Part shown: one piece after another, positions 984 through 41,842 of the stretch | Numbering within the stretch: position 1 is the first letter of the stretch | Layout: the number at the start of each line of letters is the position of its first letter | Source: Escherichia phage 2725-N35 | Sequence record: MN840485.1 | Length of the DNA: 45,917 bases | Direction: 5' to 3' (one strand) | Program-made: the position numbers and the translations under genes | The notes under the pieces: model-generated | Databases searched by the model: none | The model's input: only the letters and a program-made list of their open reading frames with translations | What the model was told of the DNA's origin: nothing

Positions 984-2632
984 CGATACATTTTGCCAGT
1001 CAGGTTAGCATTTGGGTCTTTAAGCATCTCGCCGCATTCCCTGCAAACCTTTGCTGCTATGTCATTGCGAGCGCCACAACCCTTTTTAATTACCGATTTA
1101 GTTTGCGCGTCGGTAATGTCTTCGCAAATTGTGAACTGAAAGAAGTGATCGCACCTAACGCCATCAATCTTATTGCTACAGCGACGAGCGAATGGGGAAT
1201 TTTCATATCCACATTGCGGACACTGACGAACCTCATCGCCACCTTTTCTTGAGGATTTAAACTTCTCAGCCTGAATCTCTTCAATAATTGGGTCAAAGTA
1301 AAGCTCAGCCATATCATCAAGTGCGCCAGCAAAATCCAGCACAAGGTGATCTTCTTTATGAAAACCAGCATCAATATGAGATCTCTTAAGTTTGCGCATC
1401 CCCCTACCAAGAAGCTGAATCATAAGCGTTAGGCTGCCAATCTTGCGTAGTATGACGCTAGTATCCCACAGCGGCTGGTTTACGCCCGTAGTAAGACAAC
1501 CAATCTGGAATATTATTTTGTACTTACCTGTCTGGCAATCAGCTAGAATCTCCCTGCGCTTCCTCTCTCCCGTAGAGTCTGTGATGATGGCGTAAGGGTA
1601 TCCATCTGGTAGTGCCGCAGCAGCCTCATCACAATGGAGTTTGCCAGCGCATGTTACCAATGCAGCGTTACGAGTCTCGAGTATTTTCACAACAAAACCC
1701 ATTATCTTTTGGGTCATTGATTGGTTGTCGTGAATCTTTGCAGCCATTGCATCCATTTCTTTCTTGCTGAAGTCTTTAACGCCATCGCTTCCGTCTGGCG
1801 CAAACTCACTAAGGTCATAACCCAGGTCACCAACTTCACCATAAACAGTAGGAACAACGAAGCCCAAATCAACCAGATAATTTGTTGGCACCTGAATCAC
1901 TGTTTTGCGCCAGAATCCACGGATGTTTGGGTTGCTAACGACGATATGATCGTTGTTACGATACGGGCTGCCAGTAAGACCGAATATACGAAGCTCACGC
2001 CCGTACTTCTCACGACAACGACGTTTCATCTCGGTGATAATTAGCGTGTACTGCGCACGACCAGTACCAAGCAATCCTGTGTTTACGCCATCCTTAAAAA
2101 CCATATCGCCTTTCTTTGTGCTCATTTGCTCAAATGTTTCTTCATTCTCTTCAGCCTCCACGATATCCATGTGATCGACCATGTGACACTCATCTATAGC
2201 GATAACTGCCGGAACATAGTCACCAAGCCCCTTAAACAAGCCGTTGGCTGCCGTACCCTCACTGGCCACTATAGTTGGGTGGTAAACTGATTTGACGTTA
2301 AGGCCAGCGCAATAGACGCTATTACGTATGCCGAAATTACGAAGCTCTTCTGAGTTCTGGCTGATAATCTCTGACTGGCGAGAGAGAACCATATAGGGAA
2401 GCCCAAGCTGCTCCATGCGCTTACCAATCATGGCAAGAATGATTGTCTTACCCGCAGATACTGAAAGGTCTGCGATAAATGGTGCCTCGTACTTGCCAAT
2501 AGCCTTTCCGATTGCATCAAATGTCACGCACTGGAATTCGTAAGGGGTTATCTCTCCAAACTGATAGTCTTTCTGAATCTGTTTGATTCTTTCTTTATCG
2601 AAATTTGCAACCAGCTTCTCGATAGGCAACAT
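638..2632 (-). CDS. SF2 DNA helicase with C-terminal Cys4 zinc ribbon
   Basis: 664 aa; Walker A-like 'SVSAGKT', DExH-like 'IDECH', and C-terminal CPQCG...C..C / CRECG cysteine pairs. Confidence 0.8.
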   Translation of the reverse strand: MLPIEKLVANFDKERIKQIQKDYQFGEITPYEFQCVTFDAIGKAIGKYEAPFIADLSVSAGKTIILAMIGKRMEQLGLPYMVLSRQSEIISQNSEELRNFGIRNSVYCAGLNVKSVYHPTIVASEGTAANGLFKGLGDYVPAVIAIDECHMVDHMDIVEAEENEETFEQMSTKKGDMVFKDGVNTGLLGTGRAQYTLIITEMKRRCREKYGRELRIFGLTGSPYRNNDHIVVSNPNIRGFWRKTVIQVPTNYLVDLGFVVPTVYGEVGDLGYDLSEFAPDGSDGVKDFSKKEMDAMAAKIHDNQSMTQKIMGFVVKILETRNAALVTCAGKLHCDEAAAALPDGYPYAIITDSTGERKRREILADCQTGKYKIIFQIGCLTTGVNQPLWDTSVILRKIGSLTLMIQLLGRGMRKLKRSHIDAGFHKEDHLVLDFAGALDDMAELYFDPIIEEIQAEKFKSSRKGGDEVRQCPQCGYENSPFARRCSNKIDGVRCDHFFQFTICEDITDAQTKSVIKKGCGARNDIAAKVCRECGEMLKDPNANLTGKMYRRGDYLRVYDFQVGLSKNQTGIVVKYNIMAHNGERFNAWEFFNPESDHRVCSVLWKNFCLAHIENRTEAARIGRLKNARMIMTNVDKFRAPVQVTHRRNAKGKDVIAFKNFGELL

Positions 2633-9950: not shown

Positions 9951-10196
9951 ATGACTAACTTCATCAAATCAGCAATCATAGCGGCGGCAGTAATCATGAC
10001 GGTAGGTTGTTCTTCTGGTCCTCGACCTGATGGGTGGTGTGCAACACAAGCAAACGGCGTGTGCGTAGCTAAGTGGAAAGGCGGTGTAGTTGTTCCGGCT
10101 GGTGATGTTGATATTCGCTACGCTGGCATTGAAAGCAAATCTGGCGGCGGTTACGGCGGTTCTGTTGCAGATCACGGCAGTAAGGAGTGGAAATAA
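9951..10196 (+). CDS. Small lipoprotein; candidate superinfection-exclusion factor
   Basis: Signal peptide with lipobox (...IMTVGC SSG); SD AAGGA; track ORF trimmed to this ATG. Confidence 0.6.
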
Positions 10197-11158
10197 TGCC
10201 GCAGGGTATATTGATTGACCTCAATGACGGAAGACCAGCGATGGAAATCACGGCAGGATTAAGGGCACCTGCTGTGACTGGATCAATAAATACCAATGGA
10301 CTTTCAACCCCAGCAATCTCGTGGGATTTTGGATTGACAATGTCTCCTGGCTCTACGGCTTTCTGCCTACCAACGAAGGCAGTCCACGTTGACGCTTACG
10401 ATGTTATACCCGAAGTTTATTACATGAACGGGTTTCAAAAGGTAAATGACGGAACTGGCAGGATAACTCTCAGCAACTTCAATGGTGCTAATGGTCGAAT
10501 AATTGACTTTGCTGGTAATTGCTTTGAGATACTACCGGCTTCACCCTCATCAAGTCCTGGAATACTTGTTGAGAACTCAACTGATTTCCTTGCTATATCA
10601 AGCAACTCGCGTCTAATGTCTGCGGCCTGGGTTGGTGGCATACAGGTTAACGGTGCAGCATCGCTACCAGTTAGCGGAATACCATTCGGCAAGTGGGATA
10701 ATCCAAACGTATCACTTGAATCAGATGGATCAACAATATGGTGTAGGGATATAACCTACGGAGGTACAGATGATGTTGCGGCAAGTACCCATGTTCAGCT
10801 GGTGATATTCAGGAATGAACCACCACCAGCAGGGCCCGGGCTCACAATGTCAAATAGTTCTGGTCAGATTGTTTTTTCAAGTGTTCGCCGCCCATTCGTT
10901 CTTGGTGGATTTATACAAATAAGCAATGGATATCAGTCAATAAATGGTGGTTTCTTCCCGCTGCTTAGGTGCGGCGCTACGACTAGAGTTACCGGAGGGT
11001 ATAACAACTTACGATACAAGGGTGTTTGCATGTCTGGAGGCTCCGTTAGGGCTGTTCCTGGATCTGTAATAGGTAACTACTCAACTCAGACAGGCGCTCA
11101 GTTTCCTTTCGACACGAACATATCAATGGCACTTCCATTTATCCCAAACTTCTACTAA
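10196..11158 (+). CDS. Putative receptor-binding or distal tail protein
   Basis: 321 aa; ATG overlaps the lipoprotein stop (TAATG); convergent on the J-like gene. Function inferred from context only. Confidence 0.4.
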   Translation: MPQGILIDLNDGRPAMEITAGLRAPAVTGSINTNGLSTPAISWDFGLTMSPGSTAFCLPTKAVHVDAYDVIPEVYYMNGFQKVNDGTGRITLSNFNGANGRIIDFAGNCFEILPASPSSSPGILVENSTDFLAISSNSRLMSAAWVGGIQVNGAASLPVSGIPFGKWDNPNVSLESDGSTIWCRDITYGGTDDVAASTHVQLVIFRNEPPPAGPGLTMSNSSGQIVFSSVRRPFVLGGFIQISNGYQSINGGFFPLLRCGATTRVTGGYNNLRYKGVCMSGGSVRAVPGSVIGNYSTQTGAQFPFDTNISMALPFIPNFY

Positions 11159-11189: not shown

Positions 11190-14100
11190 TTACCACACTC
11201 CAACTACCACTCTTCCTCCGTTCGGTAAGTTTACAGTGATTCCGTTATTGTTAATCTGAACCGTGTTATTGGTTCCGTTAAAAGCAAAGTTACCATTGTT
11301 AGCGTAAAGATTGCCCCTTACAGTTGTGTTATTGAACTCTGACGCACCACTTTTCAGTATCGCCCATCCCTGAGAGCCTGCTACATAATCATTTGATGAA
11401 ATTATATTACCAATCTTAGCGTTAGTAATTGAGCCATCGCCGATTACTGCGCTTTGGATGATTACGTTTCCGTTCTCGACAACGAAGGGGAGCTGCCACT
11501 GACCGGAACCAGAACCAATGCCGTTACTGATTGCGAATCTGTTTGCGTCAAAGATGAACTGACTGCGAACATTCCCACCAGTACCAACAAGTTCCATACT
11601 CATGCCTGATGAATAAGTCTGTCCATTGTATTTCAGGCCAAGACTAATTCCGTACTGTACACCAGTTGACGTGGCATTAGAGAAAGCATCCAGCTTCTGG
11701 TTTAGAGCTGCCTCGTTATTACCAACCCTTGCGCTCAAAGCCGTGTCGGCTGTCGCTCTTGCCTCTGTCTCTGTGGCTAGCGCTGTTTCAATTGTTGTAA
11801 TCTGACCAACAACCTCATCATCAATCTGCGCTTTAAGCTGCGTAAGAGCCTCTACACGCGCCTGAGTTTCATCAGCTATGAGATTAACAGCCTGAACATA
11901 TTCAGCCTTACGCTTACCGTTCTCCTTGGTCATGCGGCGAACATCGGCATCATTAGCTAATGAATTCTCAAGAATTGACTCTGCCTGATTCTGAATATCC
12001 TGGTTCTTTTGAATCGCATTCTGCTCTAGGTATTTAAAACCATCCGAGCCTTCAATATCAACCTTGATATAATCGTTGATGATGTTGGCGTCGTCAGTAC
12101 TCATTCCTCTTGCGAAGGCAGACCAATCAGACGTATTTCCGATTCTGTCGATCAATCTTGCGCGATACCAAATCACCTTGCCTGGCTGAATTGGCGTGTG
12201 CCAGTACTCATAGGCTGGATAAGGCAGTAACGTCAGTAAGCTTGCGTTATCAGGATTGTAAGTGCCGTCACCATTATCAGGGACCTGCTGAAGTTCAGTG
12301 TAAGCAGTGTCACCAGAACCCTCAGGGAAACCCCACTTAACACGGATGCCAAATACCTCATCTGTTGATGCCGTGATAACAGTAGGTGCCGATGGACGAC
12401 CAATCTTGCCAGTTAGCGATACGGTTACAATGCCAGACCAGGCAGACACGTTTTCAGTATCTGATACGCTGCGAACCCTAACGTCATAGATTCCTGCGTA
12501 AATACCTTCAATATCAACTTCTGTGCTAGCTGTTCTTGGTACGTTAATCCAGTTACCATTTTCTTTCCTCCATTGAACATTATATGTTTTAGCGTATGGC
12601 GCCTTATCCCATCCTATAACCATCGTCTCAACTGACAACCCTTGAACAACCTTACTGTAGCTTGATACGGTCAGGTTTTCTGGTGGCGATAGTCTGTCAG
12701 GCTCAACAATTGAAGTCGGGCGGTCAACAATGTTAACGCCGTAGTCAATCTCATCATACTTGTTCGGGTCATACTCTACTGCGGTAATTGTATACTGGAA
12801 TGAATCCGAACCGTCAGAATCTGCTTTTTGAATCCCGGTCACAACGTATTGCTGAAGAGCAAGATTATCCTTATCGATTGCGAATACAGTGTCAGGCTGA
12901 GCTAAAAAACTGAAAGCAGTGTTAAGGTTGATTGTTCTTCCATCCTCCGAAACGCTGGCAATAGTTCTTGCCTCTGGACTTCCGTCTGGCTTGTTCAGAA
13001 GAATTCTGTCACCAGGCGCTGCGTCAACTTTAAAAGGGGTAAAAACCTGCAACCCCTGAACTGACTCAATACGACCGGAAAGGTTTAACTGATAGTTGCT
13101 AGACCATGCGGCGTCATTGACCGCAATTACCTCGCCAATCATCGGAATCATACCTTCCAACCCTGTAGTGAAGCTGATAGTTTCGCTTCTCAGGTTTGTT
13201 TTCAGGAGCCATCTGCCACGTCTGTTTGCTTCACTTCTGCGAGTGCATCCAATCGCAGTTAAATCTACAGGGTTAAATCCAAAACGACGAGTTGCCTCTA
13301 ATTCAAATACCGGCTCAACATCCTGTTGATAGTTGTTCTCTACATCATCAAACTGGACGTTTGCCGTGGTGTAAAGGCTTTTATCACTGGCAAAGGTTCG
13401 ACTGAACAATCCGTTTACAACGTTATCATTGGTGAAGATGTAAGATGGGTTGCGAGGCTTATCAACCACGATACCAATCTTTTCACCGTCATAGAAAGTC
13501 AGACCACGGAAGATTGAGCAGATATCACGAATTAGCGTGTAGGCCTCAACCTTGTTTTGCACAACCATATCGCAAAGGTAACGCGGCTCTAAACCACCCT
13601 TACCATCCGGAACCATCTGGTCACAGAATTGCGCGGCTTCATACAAGCCCCATTTATCAATCTCTACACCCAACTCTCGCTGGTCAAGCCCATAGCGTCG
13701 GTTTGTCACCAGGTCATAGAGAACCCATGCCGGGTTATTCGACCATGCCATCTTGAATAAGCCATTCCATGTCCCGCTGTAAGTCCTTGTCTCCGTGTCG
13801 TAGTTTGTCGGTACCTGAATTAGCTTCCAACGCTTCTTTATTGAGATTGTCGGGATGCCGTTAGGGAACAAGTCAGAACCAAACTCAACATAGACCAGAG
13901 CCGTAAGCGGGTAGCGGAATTTGGCGTCGATTACTTCCTGATAGGTTGTAATCTGCATACCATTGACCAGCGTACTGCTTGTTGAATCGGGTGTAATCTT
14001 GCGGATTCGAACCAGTGCGCTATCAAATTCAGCCGGAAGGTTCACGCGAATGCTGCGGTCATAACCTGTAGTTGTCTTGCCGTTAGCAACTCCGCGAGTG

Positions 14101-14615
14101 TATTCCTGATATGCTCCACCATTAACAGACAGGTCAATTGCGTACTCACAAGTTGTTCCGTTCAGGTCTCCATTGCTTTCTTGCTTAACCAGTCTAGGCC
14201 AATATAGCTTTACACGAATCGCTGATAGCTGAGTATTGTTAACCGCAATGATGTACGGGGTATCGTTCTTGATTTCTCTGGATGCCTGAATCTCTGAGTT
14301 AGCACCGTCAAGCCCGGCGATATAATCCTGATACTGCGTGCCGGCACGGAACTCAGCGCGAACACCTTCGTAGTTGTAGCTACCATCCTGGTTTTGCACC
14401 GGAACGTCGGCAAGGTATAAATCTTTCATTGAGAAATTGGGGTCAACCTCACCATCAGCAACCGCCAAAAGAACCTTAACCTTGTTTAGTGAAATGAGGT
14501 TATCTTCCTGCTCCACTGGTTGATGCTGCTTCTGGCTACCACCTTTAGCACCATAAATCTTAATATCTTCAGCCATATCACAAAGCCTCATGTTTGTTTT
14601 GATCATTTGTGCCAT
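11190..14615 (-). CDS. Tail tip/central fibre protein, lambda gpJ-like (host specificity protein)
   Basis: 1141 aa; conserved gpJ region 'YPLTALVYVEFGSD...IQVPTNYDTETRTYSGTWNGLFK..AWSNNPAWVLYDL'. Confidence 0.9.
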   Translation of the reverse strand: MAQMIKTNMRLCDMAEDIKIYGAKGGSQKQHQPVEQEDNLISLNKVKVLLAVADGEVDPNFSMKDLYLADVPVQNQDGSYNYEGVRAEFRAGTQYQDYIAGLDGANSEIQASREIKNDTPYIIAVNNTQLSAIRVKLYWPRLVKQESNGDLNGTTCEYAIDLSVNGGAYQEYTRGVANGKTTTGYDRSIRVNLPAEFDSALVRIRKITPDSTSSTLVNGMQITTYQEVIDAKFRYPLTALVYVEFGSDLFPNGIPTISIKKRWKLIQVPTNYDTETRTYSGTWNGLFKMAWSNNPAWVLYDLVTNRRYGLDQRELGVEIDKWGLYEAAQFCDQMVPDGKGGLEPRYLCDMVVQNKVEAYTLIRDICSIFRGLTFYDGEKIGIVVDKPRNPSYIFTNDNVVNGLFSRTFASDKSLYTTANVQFDDVENNYQQDVEPVFELEATRRFGFNPVDLTAIGCTRRSEANRRGRWLLKTNLRSETISFTTGLEGMIPMIGEVIAVNDAAWSSNYQLNLSGRIESVQGLQVFTPFKVDAAPGDRILLNKPDGSPEARTIASVSEDGRTINLNTAFSFLAQPDTVFAIDKDNLALQQYVVTGIQKADSDGSDSFQYTITAVEYDPNKYDEIDYGVNIVDRPTSIVEPDRLSPPENLTVSSYSKVVQGLSVETMVIGWDKAPYAKTYNVQWRKENGNWINVPRTASTEVDIEGIYAGIYDVRVRSVSDTENVSAWSGIVTVSLTGKIGRPSAPTVITASTDEVFGIRVKWGFPEGSGDTAYTELQQVPDNGDGTYNPDNASLLTLLPYPAYEYWHTPIQPGKVIWYRARLIDRIGNTSDWSAFARGMSTDDANIINDYIKVDIEGSDGFKYLEQNAIQKNQDIQNQAESILENSLANDADVRRMTKENGKRKAEYVQAVNLIADETQARVEALTQLKAQIDDEVVGQITTIETALATETEARATADTALSARVGNNEAALNQKLDAFSNATSTGVQYGISLGLKYNGQTYSSGMSMELVGTGGNVRSQFIFDANRFAISNGIGSGSGQWQLPFVVENGNVIIQSAVIGDGSITNAKIGNIISSNDYVAGSQGWAILKSGASEFNNTTVRGNLYANNGNFAFNGTNNTVQINNNGITVNLPNGGRVVVGVW

Positions 14616-31182: not shown

Positions 31183-31689
31183 CTATAACTTACTAATAAC
31201 AGACTCCAGCGCTTCCTTCATGCTATCAACGTCGTTAGCTGTGGAGTTGTTGCTAATGGTAATCTCCTGCGGCTTATCAATCCCTAGCTCTTTACCAACG
31301 ATTGTGGAGTTGATGATGCCTGCAACGCCAAGCTGATACTTCTGCTCGTAAATTACGTTATCAATAAATTCCATCACATCAGAGTATCCAGCCTCTGTAC
31401 GCCAGCGTGCGAATCTATTGATGTTAACACCCATGAAGAGCGCCAGACCTGTTAATGTGAATACTCGAGGCTTGTGCACTAAACTCTCGCTAACCACGCC
31501 CTGGAATGCCGCCGTCTCAATGGCTTTGATTGCCTCATTCTCAGCCCATGAAAAGTATCTCACTGCAAAGTCAAATACCTCCTCTGGAGTGCACTTGCGG
31601 TTGATTGCCACCATAGCAATATCGCCATACTTCTTGTTATAAAGCGCCTTGAAATTTCCATCACCCATCTTTAATGCTGCTTTGCTCAT
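31183..31689 (-). CDS. Terminase small subunit, putative
   Basis: 168 aa directly upstream of HNH/TerL; first gene after a strong promoter. Confidence 0.6.
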   Translation of the reverse strand: MSKAALKMGDGNFKALYNKKYGDIAMVAINRKCTPEEVFDFAVRYFSWAENEAIKAIETAAFQGVVSESLVHKPRVFTLTGLALFMGVNINRFARWRTEAGYSDVMEFIDNVIYEQKYQLGVAGIINSTIVGKELGIDKPQEITISNNSTANDVDSMKEALESVISKL

Positions 31690-31699
31690 TTAATCCTCC

Positions 31700-31730
31700 T
31701 TTGTTGAGGTCAGATTATACCATATTGCAG
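31700..31730 (-). promoter_or_regulatory. sigma70-like extended -10 promoter (TGgTATAAT) for the packaging/late operon
   Basis: Minus reading: tgcaataTGGTATAATctgacctcaacAAAGGAGGattaaATG. Confidence 0.55.
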
Positions 31731-33964: not shown

Positions 33965-34025
33965 GGTGTGAACTAACTATAACAAAACCAGCCGGAGCGG
34001 GTTTAGCAATTCGTGCTATTTGCCA
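33965..34025 (-). promoter_or_regulatory. P-box promoter
   Basis: AAATAGCACGAATTGCTAAAC, 22 nt, TATAGTTAGTTCACACCAAACGAGAGG. Confidence 0.6.
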
Positions 34026-34276
34026 TTCTGTAGTTGGTTACCCGACTCATAAATCACCCTCTGTCCATAAAGCTCTTTAGCCTTCTGCAAAGACTCAATC
34101 GAATCATTAAGATCAGTCAGATAATCCTTGTGACCACGCAAACCCATGCAAAGCATCTTCTTTATTGCATGCTGCGTCGCTGGGTCAGTTACACCAAACG
34201 CATCAAGTACGCGATAAACATCCACTGTTGTTACTGTGCCATCAATGCCAATAATTTTACGGTCGTACTTGCTCAT
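34016..34276 (-). CDS. Hypothetical protein
   Basis: 86 aa; stop TAG embedded in the P-box. Confidence 0.5.
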   Translation of the reverse strand: MSKYDRKIIGIDGTVTTVDVYRVLDAFGVTDPATQHAIKKMLCMGLRGHKDYLTDLNDSIESLQKAKELYGQRVIYESGNQLQNGK

Positions 34277-34409
34277 ACCTTAATCCTCGTTATTGTGCCG
34301 CCATGCGTCTTAAGCATGAGATTTGCGTATTTTTCGTCTACATAGTGCAGGAGCATATCAATACCCCTGCTACTGAATTTATGTTCGTATATCGTCACTT
34401 AACTTCCAT

Positions 34410-34475
34410 TCATGTGGTTGATGCTGGGGATTATACCAGTCAGTATGAATCCCCTTTTATCAATTCGTGCGATCT
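34410..34475 (-). promoter_or_regulatory. P-box promoter (variant upstream box) with perfect TATAAT
   Basis: GATCGCACGAATTGATAAAAG, 22 nt, TATAAT; long (~130 nt) leader. Confidence 0.55.
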
Positions 34476-34720
34476 GTCTGAACTGTTTCTTGTTTCATGG
34501 CCCTGCCGGACCTGTACTCACTCTGAGTACTGCCATGGCAATTTGTGTAGTAGATTGCTCTATCGCCATCTCGGAATCGGTAGGCGGTACATCCATCCAC
34601 TGTGAATAGACGCTCCACATTGAATTCACCTGACTTAATCTGAACCTCCGGTGCCTTCTCGCAACCAGTAAGAGCAATCATTGCCGCAATAATGGTCATG
34701 CATGTCATTAAACGTTTCAT
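34460..34720 (-). CDS. Small lipoprotein; candidate Cor-like receptor-blocking/exclusion protein
   Basis: 86 aa; signal peptide with lipobox 'IALTGC'. Confidence 0.55.
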   Translation of the reverse strand: MKRLMTCMTIIAAMIALTGCEKAPEVQIKSGEFNVERLFTVDGCTAYRFRDGDRAIYYTNCHGSTQSEYRSGRAMKQETVQTDRTN

Positions 34721-34923
34721 TGCTTCTCCACCTCGTCCGCCGCCAGGATTAATGCCGACGCCAATTTGCGCGCCTTATCAGGACTGTAGTGCATCAGCAT
34801 CTGGCCGCCCCCATCGTCATCCGGATCAAAGTCCAGATATACAACGTCTTCTCCGCAAGCGCTTTTTGTGATTCCGACCTCAGCTTCGTCAAAGTGAACA
34901 TCTTCAATACGAAAATTTCCCAT
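34717..34923 (-). CDS. Hypothetical acidic small protein
   Basis: Start trimmed to an ATG downstream of the P-box -10 (alternative ATG at 34929); D/E-rich. Confidence 0.45.
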   Translation of the reverse strand: MGNFRIEDVHFDEAEVGITKSACGEDVVYLDFDPDDDGGGQMLMHYSPDKARKLASALILAADEVEKQ

Positions 34924-34944
34924 CTTCATTTCCTCTTTGTTGTC

Positions 34945-35005
34945 GATGTGGTAATCATATCCGATTACCCGATACATTGTTTAGCAATTCGTGCTATTTA
35001 GCACT
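34945..35005 (-). promoter_or_regulatory. P-box promoter
   Basis: AAATAGCACGAATTGCTAAAC, 22 nt, TATGATTACCACATCGACAACAAAGAGG. Confidence 0.6.
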
Positions 35006-35296
35006 TTAATCAATAAGACTTAAATTCAAAGCATGCAAGGCTTCTGTGCTGTTTTCATATCTATCGCCATCAAATACCCAGCTAGCACCATCCTTTGATT
35101 TGTATATCAACCCCTCGGTCTTTGCCTCTATGAATGTGTATGATTCCCTTTCCGTAACCACCTTTCGATACCCCTTTACTCCTCTTGATTTTCTTGATGA
35201 AAGGTATCTGATAACTCTCTCGCACCGATCCTCTTGAAAGCCATGCATATCCCAAATCGCCATCCTGAAGTGCTTGATTAGTGATTCTGTGTTCAT
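35006..35296 (-). CDS. Hypothetical protein
   Basis: Track ORF 35006..35341 begins upstream of the promoter -10; start moved to an internal ATG (uncertain). Confidence 0.4.
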   Translation of the reverse strand: MNTESLIKHFRMAIWDMHGFQEDRCERVIRYLSSRKSRGVKGYRKVVTERESYTFIEAKTEGLIYKSKDGASWVFDGDRYENSTEALHALNLSLID

Positions 35297-35324
35297 TTCA
35301 CTGTTCCACATTGCTGTTGGTGTG

Positions 35325-35375
35325 GTAATTATGCCATCCATGACATTACCGCGTTAGGCAAAAAGTGCTATTCAC
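35325..35375 (-). promoter_or_regulatory. P-box promoter (AAAAG-type upstream box)
   Basis: GAATAGCACTTTTTGCCTAAC, 22 nt, CATAATTACCACACCAACAG. Confidence 0.55.
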
Positions 35376-35478
35376 CGCTCATGGGTGATTTCATTTCCCA
35401 AAAGCATTCCATCTACGATACAAATCCATAGCCACCTCCACCTCTTCCTCACTGTACCGCAAGTGGTATGGTAGTCTA

Positions 35479-36027
35479 CTACTTAGTCTCCTTAATCATT
35501 TCCTGATAAGCATTAATCATTGTAACAGCGCCCTTAAGTTCTTCACCTTCCAAGCCAGCAACACTTGGTGACAGCTTGAGCAGTCTAGACTTGAACTTTT
35601 CAATGATAGCCGCCTCTTTCTCCGCTTCCTGCTTTTTCTTTTCGCGACTCCCAGTCCAGTGCGCGCCGTTCTCAATGTATATGACCAGGTATTTATCAGC
35701 GCCATCACCGTCGAAGCTACCGGGCCTTGTTTGCTCTCCGTCATCATCAATCCAGATGAACTTATATCTCGCTCGCTTATTAGCATCGCGAAGCTCTGTC
35801 ATTCTCGACACTGTGTTATAGATGTATGAGTTCTTTAGTTCCGGCATCGCCCTATCTGCCAGGTTGAGGATCTCACTAGTCTCTTCGTCATACACCATTT
35901 CAGGGTATTCCTTGCCTCGAACCAGTTTGAATATCTGGCTAACCGGAACTTTAAACTCACCACTCTCGGACACCATCGCGTTGCGCACCATCTCACGGAT
36001 AACTTCACCTAGTGTTACTTTCTGCAT
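35479..36027 (-). CDS. Hypothetical early protein
   Basis: 182 aa; first gene leftward of divergent region B. Confidence 0.5.
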   Translation of the reverse strand: MQKVTLGEVIREMVRNAMVSESGEFKVPVSQIFKLVRGKEYPEMVYDEETSEILNLADRAMPELKNSYIYNTVSRMTELRDANKRARYKFIWIDDDGEQTRPGSFDGDGADKYLVIYIENGAHWTGSREKKKQEAEKEAAIIEKFKSRLLKLSPSVAGLEGEELKGAVTMINAYQEMIKETK

Positions 36028-36039
36028 GTTGATACCTCG

Positions 36040-36110
36040 TTTGTTTTACTTCGTTTCAGTGACTGCTATATTGCCATCTATTTACGTGTCGGTCAATGTA
36101 TATTTTCGTC
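36040..36110 (-). promoter_or_regulatory. Promoter for the 36027-leftward operon (TTGACC -35-like, TATAGC -10-like)
   Basis: Minus reading: ATACATTGACCgacacgtaaatagatggcaaTATAGCagtcactGAAACGAAG; resembles P-box downstream half. Confidence 0.4.
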
Positions 36111-36305
36111 TATTTTATCATGGATACGCTTTTTGCCTCCAGAGGCCCCTCCATTGCTGGTTGTAAATGTGCCGTATCCGATGTGTACAGATTTTTGAAG
36201 CCATTCCCTATATATGTGCCTTTTATTCCTACAATGCCATCCATTTCTGACAGGTGTCAGAATATCTGCGCGGAACATATCAATAATCTCACCAATTACC
36301 GGTAT

Positions 36306-36372
36306 ACACAGTATACATATATATAATAATAATAATAATAATAAAGTAAAAGGTTGATATATATAGATATTA
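36306..36372. repeat. AT-rich element with (TAA)n microsatellite, copy 2
   Basis: acacagtatacatatatataataataataataataaagtaaaaggttgatatatatagatatt; matches copy 1 at ~9712..9775. Confidence 0.8.
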
Positions 36373-36479
36373 TATTGTATATCGTGTGTATATATCGCGT
36401 AAAAACGTAGGTTAGTGGTCACTAACTTTTGTGACGACACTGAGTATACGGAGGATACGCGTATATCCGTGAGGCTCCC

Positions 36480-36660
36480 ATAGATTGGTAAAAATCAACT
36501 TGTATGGTAGTCAATCCATCTTTCATTCACTCACTCACCACTTCATTTCACTTTTCGCAACAATCAAAAACATCATTGCATCTGAAGCAATATTGCTATA
36601 TGCGCAATAATCATGTGAATCATTGCAATATCTGCAACAATCCATAAATCTGACGAATGG
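36480..36660. repeat. Cluster of short direct/inverted repeats (iteron-like) in divergent region B
   Basis: Repeated GCAACAATC, CATTGCA(A)T, palindrome GCAATATTGC, and tcattcac/tcatttcac direct repeats. Confidence 0.5.
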
Positions 36661-36715
36661 CACTTTTTGCTAAAGACATGCGGGGATGGCGAGGATATAG
36701 TTAACTCATCAAAAC
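36660..36715 (+). promoter_or_regulatory. P-box promoter for the rightward small-gene operon
   Basis: AATGGCACTTTTTGCTAAAG, 23 nt, TATAGTTAACTCATCAAAACGAGG. Confidence 0.6.
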
Positions 36716-40736: not shown

Positions 40737-40765
40737 ATATAGCCTCCATTAGGAGGCTTTTTTAC
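40737..40765 (+). terminator. Rho-independent terminator ending the rightward operon
   Basis: GCCTCC-atta-GGAGGC then T6. Confidence 0.8.
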
Positions 40766-41138
40766 GTCTTAAGATTGATGCCATGAGAATTAAAACCAGC
40801 AGGCCCATAGCTCCTGTTCCAACCCACGGAAGCGCTGATGATTCGTTATTGGTAATCTCAATCTTTTCGGCTGTGATTGTAGAGGCCTTAATCGAGTTGT
40901 CAGCAGTCTTTTTCCCGCTAGAGCTATCCAGTGATCCGACCTTAGAATCTTTAACCGTGGCTTCACTGGAGCTGCTTGAGTCAACCTTGTTCGTTAACCC
41001 AACTCCAACCTTGTTATTCTCTGCACCAGCCTGCGCACTAATTTCCGGCTTACTGCCAATCAATCCGGTCAGTGCATCAGTCGCTGAACATCCAGATAAA
41101 GCTAAGCACATTACTAACGCTGCAATCCGCTTAAGCAT
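40749..41138 (-). CDS. Unimolecular spanin (u-spanin), putative
   Basis: N-terminal lipoprotein signal 'CLALSGC', Ser-rich periplasmic region, C-terminal transmembrane helix; immediately after the endolysin. Confidence 0.65.
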   Translation of the reverse strand: MLKRIAALVMCLALSGCSATDALTGLIGSKPEISAQAGAENNKVGVGLTNKVDSSSSSEATVKDSKVGSLDSSSGKKTADNSIKASTITAEKIEITNNESSALPWVGTGAMGLLVLILMASILRRKKAS

Positions 41139-41599
41139 AACTTAATCTCCTCATTCCTGCGGTTTACCAAGCCCTTAACCACAACCTTCTTGCCATTAAC
41201 GGTAGCTTTATTCCAAAGACTCAAAGACTTACAACCTTGCTCCACTTTACCCTGGTTGATTAGCCTTACAGCCGTAGACTTCCTCATCGCTGAGCCGCCA
41301 ACATTATAGCTAAAGCTGATTAACGCTGCCCTTGTCTGCGGTGCGATTGTGTAGGTAACTGCATCCTGAACATACTTAGCATGAATCTGGATGTGCTTCT
41401 CCAGTAAGTTCCGGCACTCACTATTGCTGTAGGTCTTACCCCAAACAACGTCAGGGCCAGTAACGCCAGAGCAAACAGTAGGGATTCCAGCAATGTCCAT
41501 GTAAGGCTTGTTTTCCACACCCTCTACGAGCTCAATAATCGGTGCTGCGATGTATATTGCCGCAGCCGTAGCCGCGCTAATTAGCAGCTTCTGCTTCAT
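41114..41599 (-). CDS. SAR endolysin (phage-21 R-like lysozyme)
   Basis: N-terminal signal-anchor-release helix; 'GKTYSNSECRNLL' and 'TRAALISFSYNVGGSAMRKS...INQGK' closely resemble P21 R. Confidence 0.85.
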   Translation of the reverse strand: MKQKLLISAATAAAIYIAAPIIELVEGVENKPYMDIAGIPTVCSGVTGPDVVWGKTYSNSECRNLLEKHIQIHAKYVQDAVTYTIAPQTRAALISFSYNVGGSAMRKSTAVRLINQGKVEQGCKSLSLWNKATVNGKKVVVKGLVNRRNEEIKLCLSGLQR

Positions 41600-41842
41600 T
41601 TACTTACTCCTTATATTGATTGCTGTTTTTAAGTCTCCTGATTCAAGAGCGCGCCGAATCGCCTGGCTATCCTTAAACTTCCAGTAAGCACCCCACGCAC
41701 CAAAAATGATTAAAGCGATAAGGCTGATTATTGCTATAGTCATCTGACCAGTTGCCGCTCCAGTTACCGCTGCCCCTCCAGTTGACGCCGTAGCGGCGTT
41801 GATTACTTCCCTCATGTGATCCTCCATTTGTCTATCTGTCAA
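41600..41842 (-). CDS. Holin (pinholin-like), with possible dual start
   Basis: Three in-frame ATGs (MTDRQ-MEDH-MREV), SD GGAGGA before the third; G/A-rich weak helix followed by a hydrophobic helix. Confidence 0.65.
   Translation of the reverse strand: MTDRQMEDHMREVINAATASTGGAAVTGAATGQMTIAIISLIALIIFGAWGAYWKFKDSQAIRRALESGDLKTAINIRSK

Follow-up and report, generated by a model that had tools for sequence, protein, structure and literature searches.

Introduction

The FhuA-binding exclusion lipoprotein Llp of phage T5 (PDB 8A60) is small, is made early and is located on the periplasmic side of the outer membrane (PMC9586334). Cor of phi80, N15, HK022 and T1 is also a small phage lipoprotein, predicted to be placed in the inner leaflet of the outer membrane; its gene follows the J-like tail gene as part of the receptor-binding cassette and goes along with the use of FhuA (PMC13164509). 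Another small, disulfide-containing outer-membrane lipoprotein is the LptDE-binding exclusion protein Rtp45 (PF24052, PDB 9RPS), and genes of the Cor and Rtp45 types share their place in this cassette behind the J-like gene (PMC8594841, PMC13164509, PMC12685063). The present study deals with a further small lipoprotein gene, located at positions 34460..34720 on the minus strand of the sequence of Escherichia phage 2725-N35 (MN840485.1; the whole stretch of 45,917 nucleotides that was analysed is called the window hereafter). In a first-pass annotation, this gene was proposed to encode a Cor-like receptor blocker, additional to a lipoprotein at 9951 and expressed from its own promoter.

According to our analysis, the lipoprotein is very probably not a receptor blocker of the Cor, Llp or Rtp45 type. 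Sequence comparisons indicate that the gene is the orthologue of gene rtp3 of phage Rtp and encodes a lipoprotein of the DUF4884/PHROG 6360 family, and we regard this identity and the topology of the product as highly probable.

The lipoprotein gene and its signal peptide

The open reading frame (ORF) of 86 amino acids (aa) was found at exactly the coordinates claimed in the first-pass annotation, on the minus strand. The following features were assigned to it:

34460..34720, minus strand, coding sequence of the 86-aa lipoprotein precursor, taken from the ORF list and the sequence, with the stop codon TGA at 34462..34460; DUF4884/PHROG 6360, homologue of rtp3 of Rtp
34664..34720, minus strand, signal peptide, residues 1-19 (MKRLMTCMTIIAAMIALTG), deduced from the sequence, with an AlphaFold2 helix over residues 2-16
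34661..34672, minus strand, lipobox L17-T18-G19-C20, in which Cys20 is predicted to carry the lipid and to become residue 1 of the mature protein
34463..34663, minus strand, mature domain of 67 aa, with the tether C-E-K-A-P-E followed by a predicted six-stranded antiparallel beta meander
34589..34591 and 34538..34540, minus strand, codons of Cys44 and Cys61, the probable disulfide cysteines, based on covariation and the structural model

The precursor begins with MKRLMTCMTIIAAMIALTGC, and its remaining sequence (EKAP...) is EKAPEVQIKSGEFNVERLFTVDGCTAYRFRDGDRAIYYTNCHGSTQSEYRSGRAMKQETVQTDRTN. The charge of the n-region is provided by K2 and R3, the hydrophobic core comes next and the lipobox stands last. 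We applied a rule of the PROSITE PS51257 type, which combines a charged n-region, a hydrophobic core and the pattern [LVI][ASTVI][GAS]C, whose Cys has to fall within positions 15-35. The precursor fits this rule with IIAAMIALTGC at residues 10-20 and its Cys20, and the lipoprotein signal noticed earlier, including the lipobox LTGC, thus withstood the prediction check. The same pattern is fitted by 150 of 173 family sequences, the Cys in the lipobox column is kept in 171 of them, and the neighbouring positions agree with the known lipobox preferences. When the whole window was scanned in this way, three plausible genes were obtained, namely 34460..34720, 9951..10196 and the spanin gene 40749..41138, besides a few spurious ORFs. 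That the lipoprotein is an additional one, separate from that at 9951, could be confirmed; its gene lies in the small-gene arm upstream of the terminase.

In E. coli, the residue following the lipidated Cys governs the membrane sorting of lipoproteins, which is known as the Lol rule. The window protein has Glu at this position, where Asp is rare across the family, and by the Lol rule it would be sorted to the outer membrane.

The dN/dS values between relatives range from 0.05 to 0.47 (0.31-0.47 versus Rtp and SU57), which shows that purifying selection acts on the ORF. Hence, 34460..34720 is a real gene.

Family membership and relatives

The matches of flanking DNA and proteins identify the window phage as an Rtp-like member of the Drexlerviridae, subfamily Braunvirinae. 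In a 1.5-kb region, its DNA is approximately 92% identical to Veterinaerplatzvirus T145P1 and 90% to SU57 (with approximately 72% of the region aligning in both cases) and 89% to Rtp (over 55%). The lipoprotein itself shares 93% identity with SU57_0006, 87% with Rtp rtp3 (YP_398947), 86% with bas02_0065 of JeanPiccard and 79% with its homologue in ZL19, all of which are annotated as hypothetical protein; the T145P1 homologue falls within the 86-93% of the rtp3 orthologues (79-93% when ZL19 is included). The proteins of Rtp, SU57, JeanPiccard and T145P1 are alike in length, lipobox and their slot downstream of a first gene of the DUF7174 type, but the window differs from these rtp3-type orthologues by two extra small ORFs between the first gene and the lipoprotein gene. 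The window protein is new in the sense that it is at most 93% identical to deposited proteins, and it belongs to a catalogued but uncharacterised family.

This family is described by two profiles. PHROG 6360, which carries a function-less label, matches the window protein over residues 5-86 with E=2.1e-20. The Pfam profile DUF4884 (PF16225) is matched by 78 of 79 aligned relatives at E<=0.01 (best 3.1e-11), and a precomputed PF16225 match exists for all 22 of the 22 close homologues from the word index. An exhaustive profile search resulted in 1441 representative clusters at E<=1e-3, 387 of them at E<=1e-10, and DUF4884 is a large and wholly uncharacterised family. What the window protein has in common with it is the N-terminal lipobox, the length of approximately 85 aa and the core motif LFTxDGCxVYRFxD...Y[FY]TNCxG...GK, which is nearly invariant among the 173 sequences. 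The motif residues L38, F39, D42, G43, C44, Y47, R48, F49, D51, Y57, N60, C61, G63 and G72 are all present, while the motif position K73 is occupied by Arg, as in 7 of the 173 sequences (153 have Lys). For annotation, the label DUF4884-family lipoprotein (rtp3-like) would prevent a mislabelling as Cor.

Some host labels among the related records are possibly wrong. Near-identical T1-like genomes are recorded as 'Campylobacter phage' (A16a, E6, C4, A139) and as 'Pseudomonas phage PsgS01F', and the latter record is equal in length to an E. coli phage record.

The mature domain and the predicted disulfide

AlphaFold2 modelling on an alignment of 79 sequences resulted in a pLDDT of 88 and a pTM of 0.66, compared with a weak model (pLDDT 64.5) on 17 sequences. 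Behind the signal helix, strands were modelled at residues 26-30, 33-41, 44-51, 54-59, 63-71 and 74-82, with approximately 6 residues between the lipidated Cys and the first of them. The mature protein has a pI of approximately 6.8 and a GRAVY of -1.0, and its core motif reads LFTVDGCTAYRF...YYTNCHG.

Among the 173 sequences, Cys44 and Cys61 are both present in 161 and both missing in 11, and only a single sequence has one of the pair. This covariation is strong evidence for a disulfide and, therefore, for a periplasmic location. In a meander of this topology, the two residues are found in adjacent turns at one end of the sheet, which fits the predicted bond, and a Cys44–Cys61 disulfide is probably formed. 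Many members of DUF4884 have a second Cys pair (CGKxC), whereas the window protein has SGRAM at this place. The second pair is situated at the tip of the last hairpin, and both of its cysteines were lost in the proteins of Rtp-like and Tempevirinae phages; the Gly-Lys/Arg of the hairpin tip is retained almost universally in the family.

Foldseek against BFVD returned apparent family members or unnamed small lipoproteins only, with poor TM-scores, and the sequence profile search of the PDB returned signal-peptide noise only. All NCBIfam matches (YgdI/YgdR, EexN and others) were below threshold and restricted to the signal peptide, and PADLOC had no match for the lipoprotein gene or its three upstream neighbours.

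Distribution and accessory status

DUF4884 homologues occur in 119 phage records. Within the Drexlerviridae, they are encoded by phages that use LptD, BtuB or FhuA. Outside this family, they were found in Serratia and Erwinia myoviruses, in Pantoea and Pseudomonas phages (including Jeremy), in the Ralstonia jumbo phage RsoM2USA and on a 351-kb metagenomic contig, and the gene is there always part of a run of small unannotated genes. A search with the closer alignment gave 7 bacterial loci, and the bacterial members include one in a prophage-like Pseudomonas region, which also encodes a reverse transcriptase, a methyltransferase and an AlpA-type regulator, as well as one in a chromosomal region of Paludibacter that does not look like a prophage. 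Furthermore, the Bacteroides protein BT_3183, annotated as DUF4884, was detected in a proteome study (PMC8931616). An all-against-all comparison of the neighbouring ORFs at 21 loci revealed no neighbour gene that is conserved outside the Drexlerviridae. Neither the 5,426 complete E. coli genomes (searched at the DNA level) nor the PLSDB plasmids (searched at the protein level) contain a copy, so that prophages and plasmids of E. coli are not among its carriers. In this Rtp-like phage of the Drexlerviridae, the lipoprotein gene is an accessory one.

The arrangement of a DUF7174-type first gene followed by the DUF4884 gene is kept in Rtp, SU57, FritzSarasin, PeterMerian, JakobBernoulli and KarlJaspers. 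Generally, the DUF4884 gene keeps its place directly behind the first gene of this arm in two Drexlerviridae subfamilies, yet close relatives can dispense with it. In CEB_EC3a, this slot holds gp05 (1699..1917), an unrelated 72-aa gene without a signal peptide directly after gp04, which looks like a cassette exchange at a fixed junction. In the left small-gene arm of T1, gene ST72 (2099..2272) encodes an unrelated lipobox protein of 57 aa (MMRILICMMAAVAMAILVVSGC..., lipobox VVSGC). It resembles the window protein in being a small lipobox protein of the small-gene arm, but it is shorter and not homologous (HMM E=0.41). An extra small lipoprotein in the early arm may thus be recurrent in the Drexlerviridae.

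Comparison with receptor-blocking lipoproteins

The earlier proposal of a receptor block in the manner of Cor finds no support in homology, in gene location, in covariation with the receptor, in presence and absence among relatives or in the promoter. With regard to homology, PHROG 1119 (Cor) matched with E=0.095 and over residues 1-26 only, and the candidate identity as Cor was rejected. The family HMM aligned with T1 Cor at HMM positions 1-26 only, and hhalign covered 27 signal-peptide columns only; the mature domain of Cor is not homologous to that of the window protein. For Rtp45, BLASTP returned no alignment and hhalign a probability of 15%, while PF24052 hit the window protein with E=0.55 and only within the signal peptide (residues 2-23). 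Rtp45 comes from the same kind of genome and is, as predicted for the window protein, a small outer-membrane lipoprotein with a disulfide, but it is without sequence similarity to the window protein. T5 Llp is comparable in being a small lipoprotein, early and at the periplasmic face of the outer membrane, as predicted for the window protein.

The location of the gene differs as well. The receptor-binding cassette of the window extends over 9951..11158, next to the J-like gene at 11190..14615, and the lipoprotein gene is, unlike Cor, approximately 24 kb away from it and independent of the receptor. The cassette already contains an Rtp45 homologue at 9951..10196 on the plus strand (81 aa, 74% identical to Rtp45, PF24052 with E=1.4e-38), whose last 10 nucleotides overlap the start of the gene for a DUF6453 receptor-binding protein (10187..11158, plus strand). 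This Rtp45 homologue at 9951 is the genuine exclusion lipoprotein of the window phage. Because the receptor-binding protein resembles Rtp44 (39% identity) and its counterparts in T145P1, ACG-M12 and CEB_EC3a (95-99%), the receptor of the window phage is probably LptD.

Using the receptor assignments of the BASEL S5 table, we compared the DUF4884 proteins of phages with different receptors. The proteins of FritzSarasin (BtuB) and PeterMerian (FhuA) are 98% identical, and the same value was obtained for JakobBernoulli (FhuA) and KarlJaspers (BtuB), here with a dN/dS of 0.05. In contrast, the LptD-associated group (Rtp, SU57) is 52-58% identical to the DUF4884 proteins of the BtuB and FhuA phages. 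The DUF4884 protein therefore tracks the phylogeny of the phages and not their receptor. The receptor-binding protein family is present in 406 phage records, compared with the 119 records with DUF4884. No DUF4884 gene was found in the whole genome of CEB_EC3a, although its receptor-binding protein is 95.7% identical to that of the window phage and it also encodes an Rtp45-type lipoprotein, and DUF4884 is likewise absent from the whole genome of T1.

Possible functions of the lipoprotein

Taken as a whole, we lean, with modest confidence, towards an accessory DUF4884 lipoprotein that acts on the cell envelope independently of the receptor. Its gene, an internal one in the first co-directional string of this arm of small genes, would presumably be transcribed early. 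The precursor would be exported by Sec, lipidated at Cys20 and freed from its signal peptide by signal peptidase II, as the sequence rules suggest, and the Cys44–Cys61 disulfide would be formed in the periplasm. The product is expected to be compact and hydrophilic, with its 67 aa folded into a beta domain of six strands that is held approximately 6 residues off the membrane. Its target may be some component of the envelope, broadly conserved and located where the outer membrane faces the periplasm, whatever receptor the phage uses, and the infected cell could benefit from a block of superinfection after adsorption or from a damping of envelope attack or stress. We hold the protective part of this proposal, i.e. 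a receptor-independent protective role in the envelope, only as a tentative suggestion.

Several points weigh against this explanation. Lipidation, outer-membrane sorting and the disulfide are predictions, and the protective role is a guess from gene location and distribution. The literature on DUF4884 and Rtp3 assigns no function and offers no characterised homologue. The Pfam profile taken against the window protein alone gives E=0.0074 and 16.5 bits, which is under the gathering threshold of 30 bits. Moreover, the conserved residues are mostly located in turns and in the hydrophobic core, and hence their conservation may be due to the fold and not to a binding site. Our literature search gave no transcript data for T1-like phages, and the early timing was deduced from position.

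A second Cor-like lipoprotein would bind the phage's own receptor, probably LptD, from the periplasm and block the adsorption of superinfecting phages. The small size, the predicted outer-membrane location and the short tether are shared with Cor, Llp and Rtp45, and most characterised non-spanin lipoproteins of phages infecting Gram-negative bacteria are indeed exclusion proteins (PMC9586334, PMC12685063, PMC13164509). We nevertheless consider this function very unlikely, given that the similarity to T1 Cor ends with the signal peptide and that none to Rtp45/PF24052 was found, that the distant receptor cassette already holds an Rtp45 homologue, and that nearly the same protein serves BtuB and FhuA phages while CEB_EC3a, with almost the same receptor-binding protein, does without it. 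Furthermore, members of the family occur in different types of phage and in different bacterial phyla, whose receptors are unrelated. Such independence of the receptor would suit a periplasmic lipoprotein of the inhibitor or immunity type, which protects the infected cell from a wall-degrading or membrane-damaging enzyme irrespective of how the phage adsorbs. The small, beta-rich and, as predicted, disulfide-bonded periplasmic domain is in line with this idea, and so are the occurrence of the family in bacterial chromosomes as well as phages and the lack of a conserved neighbour, which implies the behaviour of a stand-alone module. Possible targets are the tail lysin of an incoming phage (as for T4 Spackle), a lytic enzyme of the host, or a bacteriocin or secreted effector of a competitor. 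Both this function and such targets appear doubtful at present, but less so than a receptor block.

A role in lysis, as outer-membrane spanin subunit or lysis regulator, could be imagined for any small outer-membrane lipoprotein, and the PHROG model of Rz-like spanins matches with E=0.11 over the signal peptide. However, a complete lysis cassette is present elsewhere in the window, at 40749..41842, comprising holin, endolysin and a T1 gp11-like unimolecular spanin with a lipobox (PHROG 1804), and the spanin candidate was rejected on account of it. The lipoprotein gene is located in the small-gene arm and has no partner gene for an inner-membrane spanin; the protein lacks a C-terminal membrane segment and ends in a hydrophilic C-terminus, in line with the negative GRAVY of the mature part. 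Characterised spanin subunits of the Rz1 type are rich in proline, but the window protein is not, and it is predicted to form a compact beta domain. Altogether, a lysis function is highly improbable. Least credible of all, to a degree that it can practically be neglected, is a chance ORF or a decaying gene without function. It could be argued that the relatives are annotated as hypothetical protein only and that some close relatives dispense with the gene. The purifying selection and the core residues that stay invariant across 173 diverse sequences led us to reject this idea, and the number of representative clusters, the confident AlphaFold2 model and the detection of BT_3183 at the protein level speak against it, too.

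Returning to the receptor-independent envelope lipoprotein, a more general proposal can be formulated, which we put forward as speculation with a rather small chance of being correct. DUF4884 proteins might represent widespread receptor-independent envelope effectors of phages, encoded in the first-transcribed operons and binding a conserved component at the periplasmic face of the diderm outer membrane. If true, their partners could be, e.g., the Bam, Lpt or Tol-Pal machinery or a cell-wall enzyme, and many phage families would use them to block superinfection after adsorption or to neutralise an envelope-based host defence, from Bacteroidota to Proteobacteria. The homologues in phenotyped BASEL phages with different known receptors make such a receptor-independent class of lipoproteins cheaply testable. 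Otherwise, the lipoprotein gene is one more ordinary small accessory gene.

Expression and local gene order

The surroundings of the lipoprotein gene contain the following features:

34717..34734, minus strand, translational-coupling junction, with the Shine-Dalgarno sequence GAGGTGGAG at 34734..34726 inside the upstream ORF and the ATGA overlap at 34720..34717
34717..34929, minus strand, upstream small ORF of 70 aa, PHROG 13316 (function-less label), start codon ATG at 34929 and Shine-Dalgarno sequence AAGAGGA at 34937..34931
34460..36027, minus strand, co-directional gene string consisting of the DUF7174 first gene (35479..36027), a 111-aa ORF (35006..35341), the small ORF and the lipoprotein gene
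34954..34983, minus strand, weak sigma-70-like match (TAAACA, spacer of 18 nucleotides, TATGAT) upstream of the small ORF, the sole such match nearby
34430..34438, minus strand, perfect extended -10 motif (TGGTATAAT) that points at the next genes, placed in a gap of 61 bp shortly behind the stop codon of the lipoprotein gene

The start codon of the lipoprotein gene (34720..34718) overlaps the TGA of the upstream ORF (34719..34717), and a start/stop overlap of 4 nucleotides with the preceding gene is also annotated in SU57, PeterMerian, phage Jeremy, MyoSmar and RsoM2USA. Homologues of the upstream small ORF are SU57_0005 and gp04 of CEB_EC3a. No terminator was predicted between 36027 and 34460, and the string is presumed to form one transcription unit. 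The nearest promoter-like match, 34954..34983, lies upstream of the preceding ORF, and the annotators of SU57 placed a BPROM promoter at the equivalent position. Across the region, however, 9 promoter-like matches were found compared with 8.0 +/- 3.1 in shuffled sequence, so that the match is at best a promoter shared with the small ORF and statistically not distinguishable from chance. Due to the ATGA overlap, the position of this match and the absence of a predicted terminator from the string, the lipoprotein gene is read here as operon-internal and without a promoter of its own, contrary to what had been proposed. The position of the gene makes early expression plausible.

Upstream of the DUF7174 first gene, the AT-rich stretch 36030..36700 contains (ATT)n and (TA)n runs and promoter-like matches on both strands, including TTGACC at 36091..36096 on the minus strand. 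It is probably the control region that drives the gene string of the lipoprotein. Within the string, a perfect 14-bp palindrome, GTGCTAAATAGCAC, at 34990..35003 (minus strand) directly follows the stop codon of ORF 35006..35341 and closely precedes the small ORF; it might serve as an operator or form a short hairpin. A second copy of the extended -10 motif TGGTATAAT is located at 31714..31722 (minus strand), just upstream of ORF 31183..31689. Extended -10 matches are present 4 times in the window versus 2.1 expected, which alone is not significant.

Two genes downstream of the lipoprotein gene, and separated from it by a 41-aa ORF (34273..34398), ORF 34016..34276 on the minus strand encodes 86 aa. 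It matches the C-terminal third only of the polynucleotide kinase/P-loop NTPase PHROGs 2452 and 17613 and appears to be what is left of the rtp4 kinase, or a shortened version of it. Its near-identical counterpart in CEB_EC3a, gp06, is annotated as 'terminase large subunit', which looks erroneous.

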